Under the pieces are notes generated by a model, which saw only the letters and a list, made by a program, of their open reading frames with translations, ran no database searches and was not told the DNA's origin. 28,267 nucleotides of DNA from an uncultured Desulfobacterales bacterium (GTDB taxonomy: Bacteria; Desulfobacterota; Desulfobacteria; Desulfobacterales; CAZRLQ01): NCBI GenBank assembly GCA_964600725.1, contig CAZRLQ010000001.1:1-28267 (forward strand), given 5' to 3'. A program made the position numbers and the translations under genes. Shown piece after piece: positions 161 through 23,999 of this stretch. The first letter of the stretch is position 1. Each line of letters opens with the position of its first letter.

Positions 161-2254
161 TCACCTAGCGCGCTGCCGATCCGCGTCAGATACCGGCTGC
201 AGCACTAAAGCGGTACGTGTGGGGAGATAGAGGCTTAAGAAATGTAAATGTCTGCTGCTTTTATCCTGGGAATCGCTGGCGAGTGCTTCATGATATTGAT
301 CGGAAATCAGCCTTCCGTGTCCCCCATACTCTTTTGCATCACTGTTAAAAATCATCCGATATTTTCCTGACGGCACTTCAAACCGATAGTCCGGATAAGA
401 AGATGTGGGATGGAAATTGAATACAAACAGAAGCCCTGCCCGTTTAAATGCGATAATCTTATCCTTGTGGTGTTCATACATTAGATGTAATTTGCGATGT
501 GTTAAAAGCTGAAAATCCATAACCAGATCGATCATACTGCGGTCAAATTGCGCAAGAAAATGAAATTTCAGATCCGGATCATCAACCAGATGCCACTGAC
601 GGCGTGCATAATGATACGACCAGTTATTCCCCTCTCTGGGAAAATCGATCCAGTCCGGATGTCCGAATTCATTACCCATAAAGTTCAGGTAACCGCTATC
701 CGCTGTTGTAAGTGTAATAAACCGGATCATCTTGTGCAGAGCCATTGCTCTGTCAATGATGATATTATCATCAGTGCACTTCATATGGCCGTAAATTGCT
801 GCACCGGCAAGACGGAAAAATAAAGACTGATCTCCGACAAGGGCTTGATCGTGCGATTCAGCATAACTGATGCTCTTTTCCTCTGTTCTCCTGTTGGTCA
901 GTTCAAACCACAAGTTTCCCATGGGCCAGCTTTCGTCGGTCATTTCCTTAATTAAACGGATCCAGTAATCGGAAATTCCCATTGCAAACCGGTAATCAAA
1001 ACCGACTCCACCCCTGGAGAGGGGAACGGCCAGACCCGGCATGCCGCTTATATCCTCTGCAATGGTAACGGCATCAGGCCGCAACTCGTGGATAACCTTA
1101 TTTGCAAGAGCCAGATATGTAATCGCATCTTCATCCACATCGCCTCCAAAATAATCGTCATACGAAGTAAAAGCCTTTTCAAGACCATGGTGATGATAAA
1201 GCATGCTGGTGACCCCGTCAAAACGGAACCCGTCAATATGGTATGCATCAAGCCAGAAACGGCAGTTTGAAAGAAGAAAATGAAGAACCTGGTATTTGCC
1301 GTAATCAAAACAGCGTGAGTCCCAGGCTGTATGAAAACCCCGCTCTCCTTCATGGAAATATTGGTGCAGTGTGCCGTCGAAACGGCTTAAACCTTCCACT
1401 TCATTTCTTACTGCATGGGAATGAACAATATCCATAATGACCATAAGCCCGGCTCCATGGGCAGTGTCTATAAGCTCTTTCAGTTCCTCAGGTGTTCCGA
1501 AGCGGGATGATGCGGCAAAAAAATTAGATACATGATAGCCAAAGGATCCATAGTAAGGATGCTCTGGAATCGCCATCAGTTGAAGCGCATTGTAACCGGC
1601 TGCAGCAATCCTGGGGATTATATTTTCGGTAAATTCACGATAAGAGCCGACTCTTCCCTCTTTCTGCGCCATACCTACGTGGACTTCATATATGAAGAGG
1701 GGGCCTGATGGACGGATAAAAGCATCATGTCGCCATTGATAGGGAATCAAAGGCCGCCAGATTTGGGCATTAAATATCAGACTTACAGGATCTTGAACCA
1801 CACGCCTTGCATATGCCGGTATACGGTCACCCTTTCCGCCCGGCCAATGGATGCTGAGTCGGTACAGATCTTTATGCTTTAAGCTCTCGGCAGGCAGACG
1901 GATCTCCCATATTCCTTCATTATTTATACGGCTTAAGGCAAATTCTTCTCTTTCCAGCCAACCGGTTAAATCTCCCACCAGATAAATTGCCGCAGCATTC
2001 GGAGCCCATTCTCGAAAAATCCATTGATTATCATGGAAATGCAAACCAAAATACTCATGGCCTGAGGCAAATTCAGTCAAACTCATTCTCCCTTGAGTCA
2101 GTCTGCTTTCCATTTCCCGGATGCGAGATTTCCTGCTTTTCAGCGCTTTTTCATAAGGGCGCAAAAAAAGATCGCATTCCAGAAGATATTGAACCGGATC
2201 AACGGAACTGTTTTGGGAGGATATGTCAAAATATGTTGACGGCCTGTCACTCAT
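161..2254 (-). CDS. glgB: 1,4-alpha-glucan branching enzyme, GH13_8 (eukaryote/Bacteroidetes-type) subfamily
   Basis: 697-aa ORF. Motifs FREWAPNA, FFAASSRFGTPEELK, GFRFDGVTSMLY (nucleophile region), AEDISG, YAESHDQALVGD and EFGHPDWIDFPREGNNWSY are typical of GH13_8. The start is 2 nt after the glgA stop. Confidence 0.95.
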   Translation of the reverse strand: MSDRPSTYFDISSQNSSVDPVQYLLECDLFLRPYEKALKSRKSRIREMESRLTQGRMSLTEFASGHEYFGLHFHDNQWIFREWAPNAAAIYLVGDLTGWLEREEFALSRINNEGIWEIRLPAESLKHKDLYRLSIHWPGGKGDRIPAYARRVVQDPVSLIFNAQIWRPLIPYQWRHDAFIRPSGPLFIYEVHVGMAQKEGRVGSYREFTENIIPRIAAAGYNALQLMAIPEHPYYGSFGYHVSNFFAASSRFGTPEELKELIDTAHGAGLMVIMDIVHSHAVRNEVEGLSRFDGTLHQYFHEGERGFHTAWDSRCFDYGKYQVLHFLLSNCRFWLDAYHIDGFRFDGVTSMLYHHHGLEKAFTSYDDYFGGDVDEDAITYLALANKVIHELRPDAVTIAEDISGMPGLAVPLSRGGVGFDYRFAMGISDYWIRLIKEMTDESWPMGNLWFELTNRRTEEKSISYAESHDQALVGDQSLFFRLAGAAIYGHMKCTDDNIIIDRAMALHKMIRFITLTTADSGYLNFMGNEFGHPDWIDFPREGNNWSYHYARRQWHLVDDPDLKFHFLAQFDRSMIDLVMDFQLLTHRKLHLMYEHHKDKIIAFKRAGLLFVFNFHPTSSYPDYRFEVPSGKYRMIFNSDAKEYGGHGRLISDQYHEALASDSQDKSSRHLHFLSLYLPTRTALVLQPVSDADRQRAR

Positions 2255-2256
2255 AA

Positions 2257-3768
2257 TCAGGTAATAAGGGGTCGCCGCAGCATCTTTTCGTAAAGATCGA
2301 TATACTTTCGTGCTGTGACAAAATGATTAAAGGTTGCAAGGCTCTGGTTCATGACCCGCTCGATTTGACGGTTCTTTAATTCTGCAGGAAGATTATAAAA
2401 ATTTATAGACTGGTCAATAGCCCAAAACAGACCCTGGGAATCAAAGGTTTCAAATAGAAAACCGTTTCCAGAGTCATTTTCGATATCCATATTAACAATC
2501 GTATCATGAATTCCCCCGGTATCATGGGCCACGGGAAGCGACCCATAAATGCAGCCTACCATCTGTGGAAGACCGCATGGTTCAAAGAGGGAAGGCATCA
2601 ATACAAAATCGGATGCAGCATAGGCCTGACGCGCCAGATTCTCATCAAAATCACAGATGGCTACCCTGTCGCTTAGTTGGTGAAAATTTACTATTCTTTT
2701 AAAATGTTCCTGGAATTCACCATTAGCAACAAAGACCACCTCCAGATTCTGCTTCCAGTACTTTGATACAGCCAGATAGAGAATTTCCGCCAACAGACGG
2801 GATCCCTTTTGAATCGTATCCAGTCTGGAAGGCCAGAAAAAGAGCGGAGCAAGGCTGTCCTGAATCAGTCCAAGCCTCTTCTGAAGAGATTTTTTGTTTT
2901 CCAGCTTGCCCCGGACATGGCTTTCCGAATTGTACCTGCAAGCCAGGGCGATATCTGTGGCTGGATTAAAAGAAGGCTCAGGTGCATTTAAAATTCCCGC
3001 AATACATCCGGCATTCCATTTATTGATTATTTCCTGTCTCAAGGGCCGCTGCACAAAATCGTGACGTCCCTGGACAACTTCCATAAGAAAAGTCGGGCTC
3101 ACCGTATTGACAAAATGGGCGGCAAAAACTCCGCTTGCCAGAAGATCTACCGGATTATACTCACGGGCACTTTCATACTCATAAGCTGCATTTTCATAAT
3201 AGAGATGATGCCAGAAATATGCAGCATCTATGCCTCTGTCTTCGATATGGGAAAGAAGAACCTTCATGGTATGAATGTTATGGATCGTAAAAAGACATGG
3301 AATCCCCATTTCTCTCGACATGGCCGGAATAAGACCTGTCATCCAGTCATTGCAATGGATAAGATCCGGTCTGACAGCAGGAATAATATTGTTAATCACC
3401 TCTCTTTGAAAAGCAATGGCAATATTTATATTTTCCCAGCTATAATTTGAGTAAACATGATCCAGATAAAAGAAAGCCCTGTCTTCAGCAAGATGTATTC
3501 TGTCATCCGGCATCTTGCTCCAGATAGTCCTTCGTTCCTTTTCTAAAACGCGCGGCAGCCTGGTATTAAATATACCCCGATAGTCTGGAATAGCCACATG
3601 AACATCTGCGCCTTCTTTGAAAAGAGAGCTTATCAAAGAGGCCGATACATCGGCAAGTCCACCAGCCTTGGCGCTCAGGTAGTTGGCAATGTTTCCCATA
3701 CCGTTGGGAAGATAAGTAACTTCCGGTGTTACAATAAGAACACGGGGGTTCGTTGATGGTTTTGTCAT
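2257..3768 (-). CDS. glgA: Glycogen synthase, GT5 family
   Basis: 503-aa ORF with KAGGLADV (KxGGL), IHCNDWMTG, RLDTIQKG and MPSLFEPCGLPQM motifs. Confidence 0.93.
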   Translation of the reverse strand: MTKPSTNPRVLIVTPEVTYLPNGMGNIANYLSAKAGGLADVSASLISSLFKEGADVHVAIPDYRGIFNTRLPRVLEKERRTIWSKMPDDRIHLAEDRAFFYLDHVYSNYSWENINIAIAFQREVINNIIPAVRPDLIHCNDWMTGLIPAMSREMGIPCLFTIHNIHTMKVLLSHIEDRGIDAAYFWHHLYYENAAYEYESAREYNPVDLLASGVFAAHFVNTVSPTFLMEVVQGRHDFVQRPLRQEIINKWNAGCIAGILNAPEPSFNPATDIALACRYNSESHVRGKLENKKSLQKRLGLIQDSLAPLFFWPSRLDTIQKGSRLLAEILYLAVSKYWKQNLEVVFVANGEFQEHFKRIVNFHQLSDRVAICDFDENLARQAYAASDFVLMPSLFEPCGLPQMVGCIYGSLPVAHDTGGIHDTIVNMDIENDSGNGFLFETFDSQGLFWAIDQSINFYNLPAELKNRQIERVMNQSLATFNHFVTARKYIDLYEKMLRRPLIT

Positions 3769-3803
3769 GGTATGTTTTTATATGAATCATGGTATGTTTT
3801 TAT
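3765..3803. repeat. 17-bp direct repeat (period 22) duplicating the glgA start context
   Basis: tcatggtatgtttttat occurs exactly at 3765-3781 and 3787-3803. Confidence 0.9.
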
Positions 3804-3805
3804 TT

Positions 3806-3873
3806 CTCGTTCCCGAGCTCCAGCGCGGGAATGCATACCATATGGGTTCCCATGCAAAAAGCATGGGAACCAG
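3806..3873. repeat. Inverted doublet of REP-like palindromes (GTTCCC...GGGAA type)
   Basis: Unit 1 (3806-3834) is ctcgttcccgagctccagcgcgggaatgc. Unit 2 (3844-3873) contains the perfect 11-bp stem ggttcccatgc-aaaaa-gcatgggaacc. The two units are inverted, diverged copies of each other. Confidence 0.75.
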
Positions 3874-4006
3874 GCGAAAAGCGCTGCCTCATTTTTATGC
3901 TTTGTAGTGCCCATCATGGCATGGTGGTTCGTGCGACGTCCTTCATTTATCGGTTTACACTTTGGAAGTCAGACCGAAAGCAAAACTGAAAGTTTTCAAA
4001 CGAACC

Positions 4007-6568
4007 CTAAGCCCATGTGATAAGTCCGGGAGTATTTTTTATCCATTCGTCACCCTTGGGTGTCACTCTGGCGGTTAAACCGTAACGGCCAGAACCGCGG
4101 CAGGTCAGTGAGCAGCCATAAAGATATTTGCCATCTCCTCGATCTTCCTTTACATTCATCGTTATTAGATTGCTGCTATCCATGGTTTCCGTGAATTTCA
4201 GATGGCCGTGGTAAAGTTCTACATCCACATCATCCGGCAGTAAATCTCCTAAATGAACAAGTGACGTAACGGCAAAGCTTTCCCCCACACGAAACGGACC
4301 GGTCTTATCCCTTGCCGGAGTCTCTATCCGAATATTGTTCCAGAGAGAGCGAAGCCGCTTGTGCTGCAAACTCAGACTCTTTGCTCTTTCGGCATTATTT
4401 TCAAGCAGGATCTTTGACTGTTTTGCCGCTGGAAGATAAAACTGTTTTACATATTCACTGGTCATCTCATGACTGCAAAAATTCAGCATTACCGTTTTCA
4501 TTGATTCCTTCATCATTTTCAGCCACTGATCCGGTAAACCGCCATTTTTTCTATCATAAAAGCAAGGTATTACTTCATTTTCCAAAATATTATACAGAGC
4601 CTGACTATCAGCAGCATCCTGAAGTCCTGGGTCAGCAAACTCATCCCCCTTTCCGATCTGCCATCCGTTTTTTCCGGAATACGCCTCATACCACCATCCA
4701 TCAGGGATGCTTACATTCAGCACGCCATTTACAGCCGCTTTCATACCGGAAGTTCCACACGCCTCAAAGGGTCGTCTCGGGGTATTGAGCCACACATCGA
4801 CTCCCCTTACAAGAGACTGAGCAAGATGTATTTCATAATCTTCAAGAAAAATAATCCGGTGGCGCGCCTGTGGCTTGCGGACAAAGGTAATCAGCCGCTT
4901 AATCAGCTCCTTTCCTTCATTATCTTTGGGATGAGCCTTTCCGGCAAATATAAACTGGACAGGATATTTTTGAGAAGAGATGATTGATTCCAGACGATCC
5001 TGATCCATCAGCAAAAGATAAGCCCGCTTGTACGCGGTAAAGCGGCGGGCAAAACCGATAGTCAATACATCCTGGTCCAGTACGGATTCAGCTTCCTCCA
5101 TCATTGTTTTAGGCGCATTACGACGGCTGTACTGGCTCATCATCACCCTTCGACAGACATTTACAAGACGGGAACGGCTCATCTCATGGGCACGCCAAAG
5201 CTCTTCGTCGTAAATATCGTCAATCCTTTTGATCGAATCCGGGTTCCATGGATGAAGATTCCACTCGGGACCGAGATAACGCTCAAAAAGCATTGAAATC
5301 TCGTCAGAAACCCAGGTGGGAATATGTATCCCGTTGGTAATATGGGAAATAGGAATCTCTTCTTCCGGACGATCAGGCCAAATGCTAGACCACATCCGCC
5401 TTGCCACTTTTCCGTGCAGTTTACTGACCCCGTTGCAGTGCTGAGCCATTCTCAGTCCAAAAACAAACATGGAAAACTTTCCACCCCTGTCCGAACCAGC
5501 CGGTTGTCCCCACGACAAAATCTCATCTTCCTTGGCACCGACCTTCTTCTCCAGCCTTCTTAAAAACGGCCGGATAAGATCAGCCGGATATTCATCATGA
5601 CCAGCGGCTACAGGTGTATGAGTTGTAAAAACAGTCGTTCGCGGAGCAATCTCCAAGGCTGTTTCAAGATCAACATTATAATCCGAAATGGTCTGAACAA
5701 GCTTTTCCAATGCGGCAAAGGCAGCATGACCTTCATTTATATGGCATACCGAAGGTGTAATCTCCAGAGCGGCAAGAGCACGCATTCCGCCAATCCCCAA
5801 AAGCAGTTCCTGTGAAAGACGTATTTTGGGATCACCCGCATACAGTCTGGAAGTAATCTCCCTGACTTCAGGCGGATTCTCCCGCAGATTTGTATCCAGC
5901 AGGTAAAGAGAAGTACGGCCGACCATAATTTTCAAAACATTAGCATGAATTTCACCATCTATTCCTTCAACAGAAACAGAGACATCCCTTCCCGAGGAAT
6001 CCTTAGCTCTTTCCACAGGAAGGTTGTAAAGATCAATCTCCGGATTCTCCTCCTGCTGCCATCCATCAGAGTCAAGAAACTGGTGAAAATAGCCTTTCCA
6101 GTAGAAAAGCCCGACTCCGGTCAAAGGAATCGCCAGGTCGGAAGCGGCTTTTAGATGATCACCGGCTAATATGCCAAGCCCTCCGGCAAACAGAGGAAGG
6201 CACTCATGGACCCCGAACTCCATGGAGAAATAGGCAACACCGCCCTGTTGTCCATATAGAGGATAAGACTGTTCAGCCGGTGTACAGACAAGCTCTATAA
6301 AACGTTCTTTAATCCGCTCTTGATCAGACAAAAACCCGTTGTCTCTTGCCAGCGCTTCAAGACGGCTTTGAGGAATTCTTGCCAAAAAAACAATGGGATT
6401 TCGTCCGCAATCATCCCAAATTCTGGGATCAATGCGGCGGAAAAGTTCCGTAGCATCAACCTGCCAGCTCCACCAGAGATTTCTGGATAAAACTTCAAGA
6501 AAGGAGAGAGGCTCCGGAATATTCGGAAATACCTGAAATATCTGCAATCGATTCATTTTCTCGGCCAT
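4007..6568 (-). CDS. glgP: Alpha-glucan (glycogen) phosphorylase, GT35
   Basis: 853-aa ORF with LSRNLWWSW, YFSMEFG, AGGLGILAGD, NEGHAAF, GFARRFTAYKR and the PLP-lysine motif EACGTSGMK. The start could alternatively be Met5. Confidence 0.96.
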   Translation of the reverse strand: MAEKMNRLQIFQVFPNIPEPLSFLEVLSRNLWWSWQVDATELFRRIDPRIWDDCGRNPIVFLARIPQSRLEALARDNGFLSDQERIKERFIELVCTPAEQSYPLYGQQGGVAYFSMEFGVHECLPLFAGGLGILAGDHLKAASDLAIPLTGVGLFYWKGYFHQFLDSDGWQQEENPEIDLYNLPVERAKDSSGRDVSVSVEGIDGEIHANVLKIMVGRTSLYLLDTNLRENPPEVREITSRLYAGDPKIRLSQELLLGIGGMRALAALEITPSVCHINEGHAAFAALEKLVQTISDYNVDLETALEIAPRTTVFTTHTPVAAGHDEYPADLIRPFLRRLEKKVGAKEDEILSWGQPAGSDRGGKFSMFVFGLRMAQHCNGVSKLHGKVARRMWSSIWPDRPEEEIPISHITNGIHIPTWVSDEISMLFERYLGPEWNLHPWNPDSIKRIDDIYDEELWRAHEMSRSRLVNVCRRVMMSQYSRRNAPKTMMEEAESVLDQDVLTIGFARRFTAYKRAYLLLMDQDRLESIISSQKYPVQFIFAGKAHPKDNEGKELIKRLITFVRKPQARHRIIFLEDYEIHLAQSLVRGVDVWLNTPRRPFEACGTSGMKAAVNGVLNVSIPDGWWYEAYSGKNGWQIGKGDEFADPGLQDAADSQALYNILENEVIPCFYDRKNGGLPDQWLKMMKESMKTVMLNFCSHEMTSEYVKQFYLPAAKQSKILLENNAERAKSLSLQHKRLRSLWNNIRIETPARDKTGPFRVGESFAVTSLVHLGDLLPDDVDVELYHGHLKFTETMDSSNLITMNVKEDRGDGKYLYGCSLTCRGSGRYGLTARVTPKGDEWIKNTPGLITWA

Positions 6569-6579
6569 CCTTCAATGGT

Positions 6580-6888
6580 TCAAACAATCACAACTGAATT
6601 TTCACAACTGCCGTAAATGCTGGGCAGATATTTATCGGCATCCCAGTCATTTTCCCAGAATGTTTCATCTATGAAATAACGAAACTGATATTCCCTGTTT
6701 GCTTCAAGATCGATTGTAACTGTAAATGTTCCATCCTTTAGTTCTTTCATGGGAGTTGCACAGGTATCCCAGTTGTTGAATTCACCAGCAATATGAACTT
6801 TTCTGGCGGATTCAGCCGCCGCCTTTGGAAGTCTGAAAGTAACCTTGCAAACAGGTCTGGTCTTAAGATATCTTTTTTTAATACTCAT
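6580..6888 (-). CDS. Stand-alone CBM48 / AMPK-beta-like glycogen-binding (isoamylase early set) protein
   Basis: 102 aa counted from the ATG at 6888, which has GAGGA upstream (the ORF track extends to a GTG at 6930). KVTF...VHIAGEFNNWD...PM...GTFTVTIDL...YQFRYFID..WEND matches the CBM48/E-set pattern. Confidence 0.85.
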   Translation of the reverse strand: MSIKKRYLKTRPVCKVTFRLPKAAAESARKVHIAGEFNNWDTCATPMKELKDGTFTVTIDLEANREYQFRYFIDETFWENDWDADKYLPSIYGSCENSVVIV

Positions 6889-7047
6889 AATATCCTCGAC
6901 TCTTTTTAGAAACCCTGAATCCGTGAGCACCGCCCTGCAGCTCCGAATGCAAAAAAGAACCTGCCGGCTTAAAGCCGCCTATGACCGGCCAGTCTCCGGA
7001 TAGACGGAGTGCGGAACACATGGCCTGTCTTTTTTGTAAACATTCAC

Positions 7048-7187
7048 GAGTTGCATTTATGAGAATTTTCGTTCGAGATCAAGGCATGCGAAAAAAAATA
7101 ACCGGAGGCATATAGTTGATATTCATAAGGATTATTTTTTTCGCATAACACAGAGGTCGGGCGAAAAGGCCATAAATCAACAGACTC
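7048..7187. mobile_element. 140-bp long-hairpin MITE-like repeat
   Basis: Nested inverted arms: atttatg/cataaat, ttttcg/cgaaaa, atgcgaaaaaaaataa/ttatttttttcgcat, with GAG...CTC ends. The flanks attcac/atttac may be a degenerate 6-bp TSD. The core is homologous to 27748-27892 in the opposite orientation. Confidence 0.7.
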
Positions 7188-7215
7188 ATTTACGCCATAC
7201 GGGGTTGTTCTTAAA

Positions 7216-7328
7216 GATGAACGTCAACATCGAATGTGAATGTCGCTTCGCTCTTTCTTTTTTAATTAAATCGAAACGCCGAAGGCGTACCATATTCAAC
7301 GTTGGATGTTCAATGTTGAGCGTTCGTT
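7216..7328. repeat. Inverted heptamer-array palindromic element
   Basis: The right arm ttcaacg-ttggatg-ttcaatg-ttgagcg-ttcg (period 7) is complementary to the left arm gaacgtcaacatcgaatgtgaat. There is an internal hairpin acgcc-gaa-ggcgt at 7276-7288. Confidence 0.65.
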
Positions 7329-7446
7329 TTTTTAGAGAAAAAATCCACGGCAGAGCCATCTATCTCTGACCTTGCCCAGATGGCCATGTTTTCAATACTG
7401 AATAAACAAACAAAGGGCTATCCAATTTGTAATTCGTAATTCCTGT

Positions 7447-10400
7447 TCAGATAGAAAAGACCTGCTTCCATACCCTCAGCAGTTCGCTTATCCCCCAGGC
7501 TTGTGCATCACATCCCCGCTGAATGTGTGGAAAATCTCCATCCAGTATTTCAGGAATCTGACCGGCGCACCCCTGAGATAAAAGCCGCCGGCTGCTCCCA
7601 AGCCATGACAAAGCTGTATCTTTTCCTCCCTCTCCATAAACCTTGACCCATGCCTCGCAAAAGGCTGGAAAAAGCCATGTCCATGCAGTACCATTGTGAT
7701 AGGCTGGTTTACGCTCTGTATCCTCATCCCCTTTATATCTTCCCTGATAAGGCCGGTTCGGATCGACAAGAATCTTATCATGATAAGCGATTTCAAGGGG
7801 ACGGCGAACAGGTCTGTCGGCCAGACTCCGAATGGCTCCAGGCACCAGCAATTCTTCACAGGCAGTAACAATATTCCGGCAGACTGCTGTGTCGCGGACA
7901 GCTCCCATAGTAACGGCAAAGAGCTGGTTCGGTCTTAAGGCATCATCCTGCTCAGCCTGCCCGGCAGGCACCCCTGAAGAAGCAGAGAGACAGTCGGCCA
8001 GATAACCCTCTTTTCTTAAAATAAAGAGATCTAAAATAGAGGCTTGAACCTGCTTGTAGATCTCTTTCCAGCCCCCCTCTTTTCCAAGCGGGTCTATCCT
8101 GTTCAAAAGAGCTAATGCAGCAAACCAGAGGGCCTGAATTTCGATCGGGTAGCCTTCCCTGGGCGTACATGCAGGATAATTGGTGTCCATCCAGGTAAAA
8201 TGAGCCGGGCTGAAAATCAGACCTGACTGAGGATCCATCCTTATGCCGTTGGGCGTTCCCTCAATCATGAATTTGCCGATAGAAAAAATAATTTCACGTA
8301 TGCTGCGGGTACCACATTTTGAATCTAAAAAATTTTCATTTCCAGCAGCCTGAATCAAATCAGAGCAGGCTGTACAAAACCAGAGAGGAGCATCGGAAGT
8401 ATCCCTGTTTGCGGCATCTTTGCCGCAGATCATATTAGGTATTGTTCCATTTTTTTCAAATCTCCCAAACTGCTGTAAAATTTCCATGGAGTCTTTTATT
8501 TTTCCCGCAGCAACCAATCCACGGACAAAAATCAATGAATCACGCCCCCAGTCAAGAAACCATGGATATCCTGCGATTACGCTCTTTAATTCGCCTCGTT
8601 TTACAATAAACCGATCGAGCGCCCTGCATAGGGCTTCATCCATTTTCAACCCGGATCCGCCGTCAATTGCAAAAGGCCTGGTTTCCTGTGGTAAAGCCGC
8701 TGGCGATAAAGATGCCTGATCTTTCAAGCCTGAGATAGAGGCCAAAACCTCTTCGGATTCTCCCCCTTTCAGCATAGAATAAAAATAACCGGGACTAAAC
8801 AGGTCAGAATCCGGATCAAGACCACGATCCGACTCCACAGGTCTATATACCATATAGTGCCATTCCGGTTCCAGTACAAAATCCCCCTTATCAATCTTAA
8901 TATGAAGTTCGCGATCCTGGTGAGGCGTAAAGGAGAAACCTTTTCTATCCATTGCTATCAACGATGGAAAAATATTTTCCGCCCCAAGATATGCTTTGGT
9001 GGTCTGGTGAAAATTTCGATCTTCAATGTCGGGCCGAAGGATAAGCTTTACATCTTTTGAATCATCTAACTTTTTTGTTTTCTCTTTGGCCGGATGCCGG
9101 AAAAAAAGTATCTTTACGGCGTTTTCTCCATCTAACATCTGAACTTTTACGGTAAGGACAATATGTTCTCCCTGGCCGACAGGGATATGAAATCGCCAGG
9201 ATGACGCAAGATTGTAATCAAAGCTGAACTTATTCAAACAATCAAAAGATATTTCCTGCGAATATCCTTGAAACACAACCCAGCCCCGGCACCTGGCAAA
9301 CATGATCCAGCGGTCTTCCGGATATGTTTGGCTGAGGTTTGCGGCAAGGAGCGCATCGTAACGGCTCTTGAGTTCCCCCCAGAAACTTTGGGCGCGAAGC
9401 ATTCCCCCGCGGCCGTTTGTATCCAGAATAACAAGTGGATTTTGCATCAAATCCGTCCGGCTGAAAATCCTTTTTACCTTGACATCTTTTGCATTGGACA
9501 AAAAAAGAAGAGGTGCCTCAATATGTCTGCCTTTTTCCGAAGTATAGACCGTCAGTTTCAAACTGCAAGAACGATCCATTGCAGATGGCGGCAAGGGTGA
9601 AAAAAGAGTAAAAAATTTTCCATCTGCCTTAAGCAGGCTTCTTTCACAAGCGATGACCTGTCTCTTTTTCTCAATCCTGGCATGAAATGGATTGTCGCAG
9701 CAAACAAACAGGAAATGTCCGGGCGGCACCATTGTCTCCCGCTTCTCATCACGGGGCCATCTCCATGTAACGGCTCTGGACTCCATGCTGAAGTGATTAA
9801 GGCTGCGGCAATAATCGACCGGATCTTCCGATAAAAGCTTCGCAGCTTGATCCAGGTCAAATTGTCCCAGATCACAAACTCCTCTGTAAAAGCAGAGCAC
9901 TTCCATGGCCTTGGCGCGCAAACGCTTTCTTTCCGCATACTCGGGCAAGCCGAATCTTTTATTTTCAGCATAACTGAAAAGTTTCAGATCGTCTCTATCA
10001 GTGGAAATACAAAGAACCTGGCCGGGAGACAACAAAAGGCTGTTTTGTCCCTTAAATTTATCAACCGTGATCTTTGCATTGGAAAGAAGGTCTATAAAAA
10101 GATGCCCGTCTATTAAATGCGGATCCCATGACCCAAGGGTCTGATTGAAATCATCAAGATTTACCAGGATCAAAAGTTTTTTGCCGGAAGGAAGATGGTG
10201 ACGCAGCAGAGCAATGTAATTACCCTGATTCGTCTGTATCATTTTCAGATCTGTTTCATCATAAAAAACAGGATGAAACTTTAGTATGCTGTTCAGCCGG
10301 CGGATGAAAGACACCTGATTGCACGCAGCTCCCCAGTTAAGTGATGGGGAGTCATGGACATCTATTTTTTCTGTGGCAAACCATTCTACTCCATTGGCAA

Positions 10401-11742
10401 AACCAAATGCCCCGCTTTGAGAAGATAAAGCGCAAAGAGCGGTTCGCATACCTGCATAAAGATTGGAACGAGAAGCCAGCCGGTTATTGTCGTGGGTTTC
10501 TGCAAAATGAACCATAAGCCCGATACTTTTAGAAAAATGATCGGTACCTGGAAGGTACTTTTCAATTTGACGACGGTCATAATTTTGAAACAATTCAGAA
10601 TATGCCCAGTTAAAACCGGCTCTGTTCAAGAGATCCCTGGTTACAGAAAGTTTTCCTCCGAGTCCTTCAAGAAAAAAGATGGTATCAGGGTACTTTTCCC
10701 TAACCTCGGCAATAATATATCTCCATGCAGGAACAGGAACCATATATCCCGCATCACATCGGAATCCGTCTACACCGCGGCGGCACCATGTCTGAAAAAC
10801 ACCTGCAATATATACCCACAAATCCTTACATGAATAATCAAGACTCGTCAGATCTTCCCAGCGAACTCCCCATGCGCCTGGAACCTCAATACGTCCGTCC
10901 GGATTTCTTATCAGCCATTCAGGATGGGTTTCATGGAGCCTGGCGCCCCAGCCGGTATGATTGACGGCAATATCTATGATTACTTTTGCACCCCGCGCAT
11001 GAATAGCATCTACCAATTCTATAAACTGTTCAAGCGGCGTCGCTTTTGGGTCAAATTCCGCCTGGGCAGGATCGACAGCGGTAAAACTGAGGGCGGCGAA
11101 GGGACTTCCAAAACGTCCCATTCGGGCAAAAGTGGTCGGTGTGGGATTAACGGGAAGCAGTTGAATAATGGTGCAGCCTAATTCTCCAATAATAAAATCA
11201 AGCTCTTTAATGAGATCACGAAAAGTTCCGGAAGGCGGGATTACCGCATAATCCTCTTGATCTAATTCTTTTATCCAGGACTTTTTCATCAGAGCGTATT
11301 TCTCACCGCTTTTGTTCGGACCAAACTGCCGCACAAAGGCATTGTAAATAATATTTGCACAACAGCTCTCGGCCGGTTCCACGTTAATAACGATATTTGG
11401 ACCTTCTGGCCATTTCGGCTTGTCCTCTCCTTTTTTTAAAAAGAAAGCCTTGGCTTCAAAATGGCCGACTTCACAAAGAGGAAGGATAACTTTAAAATTA
11501 AAATCATCAGCCGGCTCCATTGGAATGTCAAACCAGTCCAGCCCAAGAGGCGGTTCATTGTAAAGAACATTTTTTATTATTTCTGCGCGGGAAATTTTGG
11601 CCCGTCCGATATTGGTGCGAAGCCAGGCACTTCCCTTCTCCTTATAGGAAAGCGATAGAATAAACGTTTCGCTGTCACCCACAAATCTAAGAATATATGT
11701 TCCGGGAGGAGGATCCTGCTTAAGCCGGCCTGAAGTATCCAT
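7447..11742 (-). CDS. Putative bifunctional glycogen debranching enzyme: GH13 domain + GDE_N + GH133 amylo-alpha-1,6-glucosidase
   Basis: 1431-aa ORF. GH13 regions I-IV are DIAVNH, GFRCDAG, FLEGL and ETHDN. The GDE_N-like stretch is DTNGRGG...SRYDALL. GH133 motifs are AGYPWFLDWGRD, DAPLWF, TWMD, PREGYPIEIQALW, LRPNQ, YHNGTAWTW, IPEILDG and CDAQAW. Confidence 0.88.
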   Translation of the reverse strand: MDTSGRLKQDPPPGTYILRFVGDSETFILSLSYKEKGSAWLRTNIGRAKISRAEIIKNVLYNEPPLGLDWFDIPMEPADDFNFKVILPLCEVGHFEAKAFFLKKGEDKPKWPEGPNIVINVEPAESCCANIIYNAFVRQFGPNKSGEKYALMKKSWIKELDQEDYAVIPPSGTFRDLIKELDFIIGELGCTIIQLLPVNPTPTTFARMGRFGSPFAALSFTAVDPAQAEFDPKATPLEQFIELVDAIHARGAKVIIDIAVNHTGWGARLHETHPEWLIRNPDGRIEVPGAWGVRWEDLTSLDYSCKDLWVYIAGVFQTWCRRGVDGFRCDAGYMVPVPAWRYIIAEVREKYPDTIFFLEGLGGKLSVTRDLLNRAGFNWAYSELFQNYDRRQIEKYLPGTDHFSKSIGLMVHFAETHDNNRLASRSNLYAGMRTALCALSSQSGAFGFANGVEWFATEKIDVHDSPSLNWGAACNQVSFIRRLNSILKFHPVFYDETDLKMIQTNQGNYIALLRHHLPSGKKLLILVNLDDFNQTLGSWDPHLIDGHLFIDLLSNAKITVDKFKGQNSLLLSPGQVLCISTDRDDLKLFSYAENKRFGLPEYAERKRLRAKAMEVLCFYRGVCDLGQFDLDQAAKLLSEDPVDYCRSLNHFSMESRAVTWRWPRDEKRETMVPPGHFLFVCCDNPFHARIEKKRQVIACERSLLKADGKFFTLFSPLPPSAMDRSCSLKLTVYTSEKGRHIEAPLLFLSNAKDVKVKRIFSRTDLMQNPLVILDTNGRGGMLRAQSFWGELKSRYDALLAANLSQTYPEDRWIMFARCRGWVVFQGYSQEISFDCLNKFSFDYNLASSWRFHIPVGQGEHIVLTVKVQMLDGENAVKILFFRHPAKEKTKKLDDSKDVKLILRPDIEDRNFHQTTKAYLGAENIFPSLIAMDRKGFSFTPHQDRELHIKIDKGDFVLEPEWHYMVYRPVESDRGLDPDSDLFSPGYFYSMLKGGESEEVLASISGLKDQASLSPAALPQETRPFAIDGGSGLKMDEALCRALDRFIVKRGELKSVIAGYPWFLDWGRDSLIFVRGLVAAGKIKDSMEILQQFGRFEKNGTIPNMICGKDAANRDTSDAPLWFCTACSDLIQAAGNENFLDSKCGTRSIREIIFSIGKFMIEGTPNGIRMDPQSGLIFSPAHFTWMDTNYPACTPREGYPIEIQALWFAALALLNRIDPLGKEGGWKEIYKQVQASILDLFILRKEGYLADCLSASSGVPAGQAEQDDALRPNQLFAVTMGAVRDTAVCRNIVTACEELLVPGAIRSLADRPVRRPLEIAYHDKILVDPNRPYQGRYKGDEDTERKPAYHNGTAWTWLFPAFCEAWVKVYGEGGKDTALSWLGSSRRLLSQGCAGQIPEILDGDFPHIQRGCDAQAWGISELLRVWKQVFSI

Positions 11743-11822
11743 TGAGAATTTTCTTTAAAAAGCATAACTGCTTCATTTTGTTAAACATAGTTAAGGATGG
11801 TGTATTGGTTTATACCGAACCT

Positions 11823-12269
11823 TCAAGCAACGACCATGTCGGTATCTTCTCTTTTAACTCTTTTTGTCTTTAATTTCGGCATATTTTCATTCATTGTTTC
11901 AGAAGGAAACCGATCATATGCTTTAAGAGCCTGTTCGATCTTATGTTTTAGTTCCCTTATGTCGATATTTCTCACAATGCTATAATAACTGCCTGCATAT
12001 TGTGTGTCATATTTAAAGCTAAGAAAGTCTGTACACAAAATTACCGGGATACCACAGCAAGCATCTTCGACAATTTCAAAAAAATCAGGGCCCTGATTCT
12101 TTGACAACCCAATATCCATCACGATAATATCCGGTCTGTATTTTACTATCAACTCCTTGATAGTAAAACAATCGTCGCTTGCAACAACCTTGTATCCCTC
12201 ACCGGTGAACTCGTCTATATAAAGATTTCTGATAGATCTCTTTTCATACAGTACAAGGATCTTTTTCAT
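11823..12269 (-). CDS. Single-domain response regulator, atypical receiver
   Basis: 148 aa counted from the ATG at 12269, which has AGGGGG upstream (the ORF track starts at 12332). Receiver pattern: KKILVL...EGYKV...PDIIVMD52...PVILCT80. Confidence 0.8.
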   Translation of the reverse strand: MKKILVLYEKRSIRNLYIDEFTGEGYKVVASDDCFTIKELIVKYRPDIIVMDIGLSKNQGPDFFEIVEDACCGIPVILCTDFLSFKYDTQYAGSYYSIVRNIDIRELKHKIEQALKAYDRFPSETMNENMPKLKTKRVKREDTDMVVA

Positions 12270-12480
12270 ATCAGCCCCCTTTTGCCCAATTTCTGCGACA
12301 GGCTCAAAATACACAAAGTATATTCCTGCCACATTATCAATAATAAAATTTTATTCAATGATATTCAGAATATGTTTTAATTGTAAATAAGGGAGGCAAT
12401 CTATTTTAATGAGCAATTCTCCCTGAAAACGGGATTTTTCCCCATACAGCAAAAGCCGGGCTTAGGATGATTTCAAAATT

Positions 12481-12858
12481 CTAATAATGCTCATTTGTTC
12501 TGGTGATCCCGATGAGAACCCCTTTTTTATTAAACTTGGCGGTTTTGATTACACGTCTATAACTATCTCTTCCATAATAAAACGGAATAAAAGCTTTCCC
12601 TGTGATATGACTCCGGTTAAAGGTTAAGATTTCTTCTCCTTTTTCATTAATTGATACCCCGTTTGGCTTTCCCCATTTTGCAATAACTTCTTCTTTTTTT
12701 GTTTTTCCCATTACAAATTCAGATTCAGGCAATACCCTTTCACTTTCACTCAGAGTATTTTGCTTTGTTTGATCCTTTTTAGGTTGAGCGGTATGACAAC
12801 CCGCAACAATAAATGAAAAAAAAATCAATAAAAACGAAAGACACTTAAAAATCCTCAT
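12481..12858 (-). CDS. Small lipoprotein, possible SmpA/OmlA (BamE)-like domain
   Basis: Signal peptide with lipobox IVAG-C. GKTKKEEVIAKWGKP resembles the BamE G(M)T..EV...LG.P pattern. AAGGAG lies upstream. Confidence 0.7.
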   Translation of the reverse strand: MRIFKCLSFLLIFFSFIVAGCHTAQPKKDQTKQNTLSESERVLPESEFVMGKTKKEEVIAKWGKPNGVSINEKGEEILTFNRSHITGKAFIPFYYGRDSYRRVIKTAKFNKKGVLIGITRTNEHY

Positions 12859-15939: not shown

Positions 15940-16039
15940 GTAATTTCTCAAAAATTAGGATAATGATAGGAAAATCCCCCCAGTCCCCCTTTTTCAAAGG
16001 GGAAAGCACATAATGTGCCTGAACTTTTTGAGAAGTTGC
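15940..16039. mobile_element. 100-bp MITE, copy A (GTAA-type termini)
   Basis: TIRs gtaatttctcaaaaa / tttttgagaagttgc match at 13/15. Flanks ggagcagc / ggaacagc match at 7/8. A 25-bp core is identical to copy B. Confidence 0.85.
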
Positions 16040-16054
16040 GGAACAGCCGCGCAG

Positions 16055-16083
16055 ATCAAAAATTTTTGTATTTTTTGGGCATT
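16055..16083 (+). repeat. 29-bp repeat, inverted partner of 17241-17269
   Basis: atcaaaaatttttgtattttttgggcatt matches the reverse complement of 17241-17269 at 27/29. Confidence 0.9.
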
Positions 16084-17240: not shown

Positions 17241-17269
17241 AATGTCCAAAAAATACAAAAAATTTTGAT
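17241..17269 (-). repeat. 29-bp repeat, inverted partner of 16055-16083
   Basis: aatgtccaaaaaatacaaaaaattttgat; its reverse complement matches 16055-16083 at 27/29. Confidence 0.9.
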
Positions 17270-18832: not shown

Positions 18833-18920
18833 GTAACTTCTCAAAAAATTCGGGCAGCGATGGAAAAATCCCCCTTTTTCAAAGGGGAAAGCAGACAGAT
18901 ATCCGAACTTATTAAGTTAC
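18833..18920. mobile_element. 88-bp MITE, copy B (GTAAC...GTTAC) with a perfect 8-bp target-site duplication
   Basis: Ends are gtaactt / aagttac. taagattt is present at both 18825-18832 and 18921-18928. The core tccccctttttcaaaggggaaagca (18869-18893) is identical to 15984-16008. Confidence 0.9.
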
Positions 18921-23967: not shown

Positions 23968-23999
23968 CCATAAATCAACAGACTCATAAATCCACGGCA
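23968..23999 (+). repeat. Composite repeat fragment matching 7170-7189 and 7341-7352
   Basis: ccataaatcaacagactcat (20/20 with 7170-7189) is immediately followed by aaatccacggca (12/12 with 7341-7352). Confidence 0.85.

Follow-up and report, generated by a model that had tools for sequence, protein, structure and literature searches.

Glycogen breakdown in bacteria is usually taught as a process in which whole branches are cut by GlgX and recycled by MalQ, and that of animals and fungi as the work of a single large bifunctional protein, which first shifts the branch and afterwards removes the last glucose. Here we describe a glycogen gene cluster in a stretch of 28,267 nucleotides (nt) from an uncultured Desulfobacterales bacterium (assembly GCA_964600725.1, contig CAZRLQ010000001.1), which we call the window throughout. 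Its central element is a fused protein, the debrancher, which joins a GH13 module to a GH133 module in one polypeptide. This fusion is convergent and independent of the one present in the eukaryotic glycogen debranching enzyme (GDE). The cluster encodes a variant of a known pathway that is conserved, widespread and uncharacterised, and the best reading of the region is a chromosomal glycogen operon typical of sulfate-reducing Desulfobacterales, with ordinary storage glycogen and an unusual degradation arm.

For prokaryotes, the 2014 phylogenomic survey of Zmasek and Godzik gives GH133 proteins only as short, unfused GDE_N-GDE_C proteins and remarks that experimental evidence for them is lacking (PMC4236520). 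The accessible part of the 2024 Chemical Reviews survey treats archaeal GH133, citing a Sulfolobus acidocaldarius enzyme whose mutant over-accumulates glycogen, and contains there neither a GH13-GH133 fusion nor a mention of Deltaproteobacteria (PMC11046441). According to the 2025 structure paper on human GDE, conservation of the bifunctional enzyme does not extend to bacteria (PMC12219210). Our literature search returned no paper describing this Desulfobacterales cluster.

Like eukaryotic GDE (AGL, GDE or Gdb1; GH13_25 plus GH133; 5D06, human GDE), the debrancher unites both modules in one chain of about 1400-1500 residues, with GH13 at the N-terminus, a GH133 (alpha/alpha)6 domain at the C-terminus and intact acid/base residues in each. 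A further point in common is a GT35 phosphorylase, its presumed partner, which is encoded beside it. Unlike eukaryotic GDE, the debrancher has a GH13 module outside the GH13_25/hGDE_amylase type and, before the glucosidase, GDE_N in place of hGDE_central; sequence similarity between the two is limited to a stretch of about 110 residues within the glucosidase domain. Regarding the cluster as a whole, Bacteroidota glycogen genes (e.g. B. thetaiotaomicron Q8A9P4) likewise include a GH13_8 enzyme orthologous to human GBE1 and not to E. coli GlgB, and no adjacent glgC, bacterial GBE1 orthologues having already been described in Bacteroides among others (PMC4236520; PMC10395257). In contrast to their GT3 synthase (PMC11046441), the window has a GT5 synthase together with the fused debrancher. 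As in glgBXCAP of E. coli, synthase, branching enzyme and phosphorylase are clustered at one locus; unlike it, the window contains neither glgC nor glgX, has a GH13_8 and not a GH13_9 branching enzyme and a DUF3417-type phosphorylase, and its proposed debranching is indirect.

A GH13-GH133 fusion independent of the eukaryotic enzyme

The AlphaFold2 model of the N-terminal 770 residues (predicted local distance difference test, pLDDT, of 83) combines a beta-sandwich with a (beta/alpha)8 barrel, a C-domain and one more helical/beta region. The GH13 motifs are DIAVNH (residues 257-262), GFRCD (326-330), E359 within FFLEGLGG, and H417-D418, where D330 is the nucleophile and E359 the acid/base. D257/H262, R328, D330, E359 and H417/D418 do not vary in either of two alignments (20 and 26 sequences). 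By sequence, the nearest solved relatives of this half are the GH13_48 enzymes 3dhu (L. plantarum) and 4gkl (T. neapolitana), at about 21-22% identity, and then GlgE, with identities of 15-22% over all GH13_48 and GlgE relatives. GH13_48 is also the best Foldseek match of the barrel (TM 0.77), and it has in common with the debrancher an HPEW motif and a Cys before the nucleophile, the latter being a feature of GH13_48/49 (PMC11239784). For the whole N-terminal half, GlgE (GH13_3) structures come first, with a TM of 0.6 over about 700 columns that include the N-terminal beta domain, and the layout of N-domain, barrel and C-domain is that of GlgE. These relatives carry no fused GH133 module, and the active-site substitutions of GlgE are not found in the debrancher.

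We found no match of the debrancher to PF14701 (hGDE_amylase), hGDE_N or hGDE_central, even at E-values up to 10. Searches of the PDB with the single sequence and with the family profile gave no match between the GH13 half and the glucanotransferase domain of 5D06/human GDE, and eukaryotic GDE was absent from the top 50 Foldseek matches of the N-terminal model, which hold GlgE and bacterial amylases. With Pfam, PDB searches and Foldseek all blank, homology of this half to the eukaryotic transferase domain beyond the level of the GH13 family was rejected. In this sense, since the GH13 half resembles bacterial GH13_48 and GlgE and not the eukaryotic domain, the fusion arose independently of that in eukaryotes.

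The C-terminal 660 residues have the architecture of GDE_N-GDE_C proteins from bacteria and archaea (TIGR01561, gde_arch), from which the debrancher differs by the approximately 770 residues with the GH13 module fused in front of GDE_N. Both Pfam domains score well above their cut-offs and the protein reaches 148 bits against TIGR01561, below the cut-off of 364, so that it represents a related but distinct GH133 subfamily. When the family profile was compared with eukaryotic GDE, only the glucosidase domains of the C. glabrata and human enzymes matched (43 bits, positions 1040-1148). D1186 (in FTWMDT) and E1398 (in PEILDG) are invariant, and a fold search with this half retrieved (alpha/alpha)6 enzymes, including C. 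glabrata GDE (cgGDE) and the T. gammatolerans amylo-1,6-glucosidase 7vma, which was published without a family assignment (PMC9142091). Judging from these motifs, both halves look catalytically competent: the polypeptide has two intact catalytic centres, and both activities are predicted.

An exhaustive search placed the debrancher in a family of about 200 clusters at 50% identity, with members also in Verrucomicrobiota and Kiritimatiellia. Nearly all complete members are 1380-1490 amino acids (aa) long, and this near-uniform full length indicates that the fusion is the rule and defines the family. In databases, members are named 'glycogen debranching enzyme N-terminal domain-containing protein', 'amylo-alpha-1,6-glucosidase' or, in several cases from JGI, 'starch synthase (maltosyl-transferring)'.

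A conserved cluster of four enzyme genes

The map of open reading frames (ORFs) of the window agrees with an earlier note on this DNA, which had described six co-oriented glycogen genes at the coordinates that we recovered (Table 1). All six are on the minus strand, as are all long ORFs of the window, in the 5' to 3' order receiver, GH13-GH133 debrancher, CBM48 protein, GT35 phosphorylase (GlgP), GT5 synthase (GlgA) and GH13_8-like branching enzyme (GlgB). To survey relatives, one genome per species was taken, giving 343 full-length genomic relatives of the debrancher, and the best 80 of these 343 (53-64% identity) were fetched; they are metagenome-assembled genomes (MAGs) of Desulfobacterales and Syntrophales. 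The core order debrancher-(CBM48)-GlgP-GlgA-GlgB recurs in both groups. Closed genomes with the cluster include CP070694.1, CP070697.1, OY761459.1 and CP070746.1. GlgP follows the debrancher in 66 of the 69 loci with enough sequence, and GlgP, GlgA and GlgB are all downstream in the same order, with the branching enzyme closing the cluster as its last gene, in 48 of the 54 loci with enough flank. The genes are therefore a genuine module across many Desulfobacterales genomes. As the four enzyme genes are kept without the receiver or a constant CBM48 gene, this module consists of the four enzymes, with CBM48 as a frequent option.

The branching enzyme scores 698 bits against human GBE1, about 620 against plant enzymes (rice BEI, 619) and only 181 against E. 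coli GlgB, and lies below all NCBIfam GlgB equivalog cut-offs. These scores make the GH13_8 label of the earlier note a fair one, and the sequence comparison supports an enzyme of the GBE1 type.

GlgA is a divergent GT5 member, with 274 bits against TIGR02095 (cut-off 328); its closest solved relative is Arabidopsis SS4, followed by E. coli GlgA. The equivalents of E. coli residues E9, K15, G17/G18, D137, H161, R300, K305 and E377 are invariant among 31 family members. E. coli Y355 is replaced by Phe in the window, so that an aromatic residue is kept at the adenine-stacking position; as this is uninformative, the sugar-nucleotide donor of GlgA cannot be read from its sequence. Compared with E. 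coli GlgA, the synthases of the family have a 12-residue insert, YLPNGMGNIANY (GlgA residues ~18-32), just ahead of the KxGGL motif (KAGGLADV). In one Syntrophales MAG, a 905-aa ORF in which GH57 is fused to a GT5 synthase domain is located just upstream of the debrancher (L008:5107-7824).

GlgP reaches 806 bits against TIGR02094 (cut-off 192), and its translation contains the EACGTSGMKAAVNG motif with the lysine that binds pyridoxal phosphate (PLP), the PLP-lysine motif GTSGMKAAVNG being present. An alternative start, ATG at 6556, would give 849 aa. By its domain content, GlgP classifies with the common prokaryotic DUF3417 type and is not eukaryote-like. In some clusters a second, divergent GlgP paralogue (42% identity) follows the first phosphorylase (L079:17610-19748; L022).

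As the earlier note had reported, glgC, glgX and malQ are missing from the window: none was detected by Pfam and NCBIfam scans, which took 19 of the 45 ORFs of at least 80 aa, that is, all long minus-strand ORFs, nor by tblastn queries with the three genuine proteins of E. coli MG1655 (L083). Within 10 kb of the debrancher in the 80 loci (~1.5 Mb), none of these three E. coli-type proteins was detected, apart from family-level GlgX-GlgB matches. A further 80 loci centred on a UDP-glucose pyrophosphorylase (UGPase; see below) contained none either except for one Desulfobacter GlgX (~2.4 Mb in total). True GlgX (TIGR02100, 840 bits) occurs in a few Desulfobacterota (L124:11836-13377; L164-L168); its closest kin, at 69-72% identity, are actinobacterial proteins, a pattern suggestive of horizontal transfer.

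Table 1. Features of the glycogen gene cluster, with positions in the window
Feature	Positions	Strand	Basis
Branching enzyme GlgB	161-2254	minus	Pfam CBM_48, Alpha-amylase and Alpha-amylase_C
GlgA, GT5 glycogen/starch synthase, 503 aa, divergent	2257-3768	minus	Pfam Glyco_transf_5, 115 bits
GlgP, GT35 alpha-glucan phosphorylase, prokaryotic DUF3417 type, 853 aa	4007-6568	minus	Pfam DUF3417 and Phosphorylase
Free-standing CBM48 protein, 102 aa	6580-6888	minus	Pfam CBM_48, AMPK1_CBM
Debrancher-CBM48 spacer, 558 nt	6889-7446	minus	Hairpins; possible terminator and internal promoter (read from sequence)
Fused debrancher, 1431 aa	7447-11742	minus	Pfam Alpha-amylase, GDE_N and GDE_C
Debrancher residues 1043-1423, GDE_C (GH133), proposed amylo-alpha-1,6-glucosidase	7474-8616	minus	PF06202, 218-221 bits
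Debrancher residues 773-996, GDE_N (bacterial/archaeal N-terminal beta domain of GH133)	8755-9426	minus	PF12439, 117 bits
Debrancher residues ~150-600, GH13 (beta/alpha)8 module and C-domain, proposed glucanotransferase	9943-11295	minus	GH13 motifs
Debrancher residues 1-135, N-terminal all-beta domain	11338-11742	minus	AlphaFold2 model made up of strands, with pLDDT >90 at residues 10-130
Orphan single-domain receiver, 148 aa from ATG 12269	11823-12269	minus	Pfam Response_reg

Proposed route of glycogen turnover and its alternatives

Judging by the families of the enzymes and their conserved catalytic residues, in synthesis a nucleotide-glucose would serve the GT5 synthase to lengthen alpha-1,4 chains, into which the GBE1-type GH13_8 enzyme would put the alpha-1,6 branches. 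In degradation, the GT35 phosphorylase would trim the outer chains to limit-dextrin stubs, the GH13 module of the debrancher, a predicted 4-alpha-glucanotransferase, would shift the remaining stub oligosaccharide onto another chain end, and the GH133 module would then hydrolyse the single leftover alpha-1,6-glucose. With a transferase and a glucosidase in the same protein, GlgX and MalQ would not be needed. The fused enzyme was assembled, independently of animal and fungal GDE, from a bacterial GH13 domain, kin to GH13_48 and GlgE, and a bacterial or archaeal GDE_N-GDE_C enzyme. The phosphorylase beside a fused GH13 and GH133 protein, with neither glgX nor malQ within 10 kb in 80 loci, fits indirect debranching in the eukaryotic style, and we consider a glycogen operon with indirect debranching by the fused enzyme to be, on balance, the probable reading. 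The eukaryote-like enzyme set proposed in the earlier note is retained in part: the branching enzyme is of GBE1 type and the logic of indirect debranching is plausible, while the GH13 half of the debrancher is bacterial and the phosphorylase is an ordinary prokaryotic one.

Several points weigh against this reading. The activities of the whole debrancher family are predictions. D1186 and E1398 occupy the positions of D1241 and E1492, the catalytic residues of cgGDE (PMC12219210), as placed by spacing from aligned segments and not by residue-level alignment, and the model of the GH133 half is of moderate confidence only (pLDDT 69). The MAG CAWAAN01 carries a fused-debrancher cluster (L034) and, as a scan with the Desulfobacter GlgX revealed, a GlgX elsewhere (L166), so that the absence of glgX is no rule, and direct debranching can coexist with the cluster. 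It is possible that the six genes form one operon, with gaps of 80 nt between receiver and debrancher, 11-23 nt between CBM48 and GlgP and 2 nt between GlgA and GlgB; the internal gaps of 558 nt (debrancher-CBM48) and 238 nt (GlgP-GlgA) make co-transcription a conjecture. No RNA run holding the locus was found, the runs that hold it being DNA metagenomes from marine sediment and hydrothermal vents. Lastly, GH13_48 enzymes, the closest characterised kin of the GH13 half, are maltose-forming hydrolases and not transferases (PMC11239784).

This last point gives rise to an alternative in which the GH13 half is an exo-acting, maltogenic hydrolase, and the fused protein trims branches to maltose and glucose with no chains re-attached. 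Its two best solved relatives, 3dhu and 4gkl, with which it has the Cys before the nucleophile and HPEW in common, are described as maltogenic or maltose-forming amylases (PMC11239784). However, an identity of only about 21-22% separates them from the GH13 half, and its next-closest kin are transferases, namely GlgE and 1gju, the maltosyltransferase of T. maritima. In addition, maltose-handling genes (malQ, maltose phosphorylase) occur in none of the 80 neighbourhoods, and the constant pairing with a phosphorylase favours conservation of the chains. We therefore regard a hydrolase as unlikely, while still taking it as a serious contender.

Another alternative, contained in the earlier note, is a self-contained six-gene system with dedicated subunits, a regulatory one (the receiver) and a granule-targeting one (the CBM48 protein). 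The receiver, whose ORF can extend to a GTG at 12332, scores 32.3 bits against Pfam Response_reg (cut-off 30.2). It is atypical, as that note had recognised: compared with E. coli CheY, D12/D13 are replaced by Y/E and K109 is not conserved, and the acceptor Asp D57 and T87 are kept. It has the receiver fold and is probably no canonical phospho-acceptor. A link with the cluster could be seen in its position 80 nt upstream of the debrancher, with shared orientation, and in the promoter-like sites ahead of it (12387-12358 and 12409-12380, minus strand), which come from a scan not clearly above shuffled expectation. A few relatives also fill the same slot with small signalling proteins, and a CBM48 gene lies in the slot between debrancher and GlgP in 18 loci. 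Against a dedicated regulator stands that the receiver has one homologue, a distant one of 35% identity, among 5.8 billion proteins, and that tblastn revealed no counterpart upstream of the debrancher in any of 64 testable related loci. The jackhmmer matches in relatives are generic response regulators, and the receiver was rejected as a conserved regulator. It is a lineage- or species-specific neighbour outside the conserved module, which may be co-transcribed with the debrancher.

As for the CBM48 protein, its ORF reaches a GTG at 6930, and translation probably starts at the ATG at 6888, in line with the gene called in L001 and with relatives. It matches Pfam CBM_48 (31.5 bits, cut-off 22.4) and AMPK1_CBM (30 bits, cut-off 26.8). 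Among solved structures, the glycogen-binding modules of AMPK beta-2 and beta-1 come closest to it, and the alignment with beta-2 shows common GxFNNW and Y-x-F-x-(F/V)-D (YxF(F/Y)xD) motifs. The 18 loci mentioned are out of 71, and an upstream position of the gene was seen twice; a presence in only about a quarter of loci indicates an optional accessory part, which on these matches would be glycogen-binding. Given that the four enzyme genes are conserved without CBM48 or receiver, a six-gene system is in our view quite improbable. In this sense, the co-occurrence expected in the earlier note holds for the four enzymes, and its idea that the cluster has its own regulators does not extend to the receiver and leaves CBM48 as an accessory.

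In relatives, the slot upstream of the debrancher contains a pseudo-receiver with the acceptor Asp changed to Asn (L012 and L013), a PilZ protein (L024) or NarL-type regulators (L006 and L079). The small signalling proteins located just upstream of the debrancher are L024:9594-9992, L013:596-910 and L012:8008-8391. The PilZ and pseudo-receiver neighbours give a hint of second-messenger input to glycogen turnover.

The weakest alternative, that the GH13 half is a GlgE-like maltosyltransferase building alpha-1,4 chains from maltose-1-phosphate and the fused protein is synthetic or remodelling and not a debrancher, has in its favour the Foldseek ranking of GlgE and the JGI names, and was rejected at the motif level, as residue-level alignment sets LQCSPDH, RVDNPH and NTPD of GlgE against canonical NH, RCDAG and THD in the debrancher family; it is made very improbable, too, by the operon already holding a GT5 synthase, by the partner domain being a glucosidase, and by the 80 neighbourhoods, in which ORF clustering with scans of selected clusters, and no specific search, showed no treS, pep2 or glgM-like gene.

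Genomic setting, UDP-glucose and significance

Upstream of the cluster are genes for a 125-aa predicted lipoprotein and purL, rseP, dxr, cdsA, uppS, frr, pyrH, tsf, rpsB, prmC, prfA and rho. These housekeeping surroundings indicate a chromosomal locus, and there are no signs of mobility. The DNA of the window is present in two ENA assemblies. The lipoprotein (window 12481-12858, between purL and the receiver) has a signal peptide with Cys and no family match above threshold. The window further contains an exact 25-nt intergenic repeat pair (15984-16008 and 18869-18893), an exact 20-nt intergenic pair (7170-7189 and 23968-23987) and a 29-nt inverted pair, 93% complementary, on either side of rseP (16055-16083 and 17241-17269). 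These short intergenic repeats may be small elements like repetitive extragenic palindromes (REP). The debrancher-CBM48 spacer is unusual in its length, those of relatives going from tens of nt up to ~375 nt (median ~90). Within it are a palindrome (7295-7326) and, on the minus strand, weak hairpins resembling terminators (7359-7347 and 7288-7276). Promoter and terminator scans of the window gave no signal clearly above shuffled expectation, and an Rfam scan returned zero matches at the gathering threshold, in the spacer as in the rest of the window.

Clustering of flanking ORFs showed that the commonest upstream neighbour of the debrancher, present in 19 of the 80 relatives with a gap down to 4 nt, is a 467-aa protein of the UDPGP family (L025:8503-9906, L034:8576-9976, L031:559-1959 and 16 further loci; also L084-L154). 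Its score against Pfam PF01704 is 414 bits, no NCBIfam (bacterial) model matches it, and its best solved relatives are the UGPases of trypanosomatids (Trypanosoma, Leishmania), plant, yeast and human. A scan seeded with this protein added 11 loci with the gene 2-4 kb upstream of the debrancher, 5 cluster-bearing MAGs with the gene on another contig, and 1 Desulfobacter chromosome where it lies near a true GlgX. This neighbourhood suggests that UDP-glucose feeds glycogen in these bacteria. Several caveats apply. The UDPGP-type UGPase is found neither in the window nor in the flanks of its closest relatives, and the adenine-stacking aromatic of GlgA adds to the caution. Moreover, in 7 loci a GT4 gene (cluster c12; e.g. 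L068:8648-9961) is inserted between UGPase and debrancher. The GT4 protein resembles mannosylglucosylglycerate synthase (239 bits, below cut-off) and a sucrose-phosphate-synthase-like structure, so that the UGPase may serve the synthesis of compatible solutes instead. The same closest resemblance led us to reject the GT4 as a GlgM-like maltose-1-phosphate synthase, which also removes it as an ally of the GlgE-like alternative.

The fullest form of the proposal is a complete glycogen cycle of eukaryotic logic built in bacteria, in which the eukaryote-type (UDPGP-family) UGPase would supply the GT5 synthase, alongside the GBE1-type enzyme, and in breakdown the phosphorylase would act with the convergently fused debrancher; we put it forward tentatively, as a rather doubtful possibility. 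More speculative still is the idea that the UGPase, GH13_8 and GH133 of eukaryotes may be traceable to a deltaproteobacterial-like donor.

The window and hundreds of relatives present a bacterial version of the two-centre layout, made from different parts and set in a conserved operon with GlgP, a GT5 synthase and a GBE1-type enzyme. If its activities prove to be as predicted, this family would constitute a clean case of convergent enzyme architecture and would provide a compact bacterial model for the passage of substrate between two sites. The link with a eukaryote-type UGPase also raises the possibility of UDP-glucose-based glycogen in abundant marine-sediment bacteria. If the reading of a UDP-glucose cycle is true, it would overturn the textbook statements that bacteria use ADP-glucose and that there is no bifunctional debrancher in bacteria.

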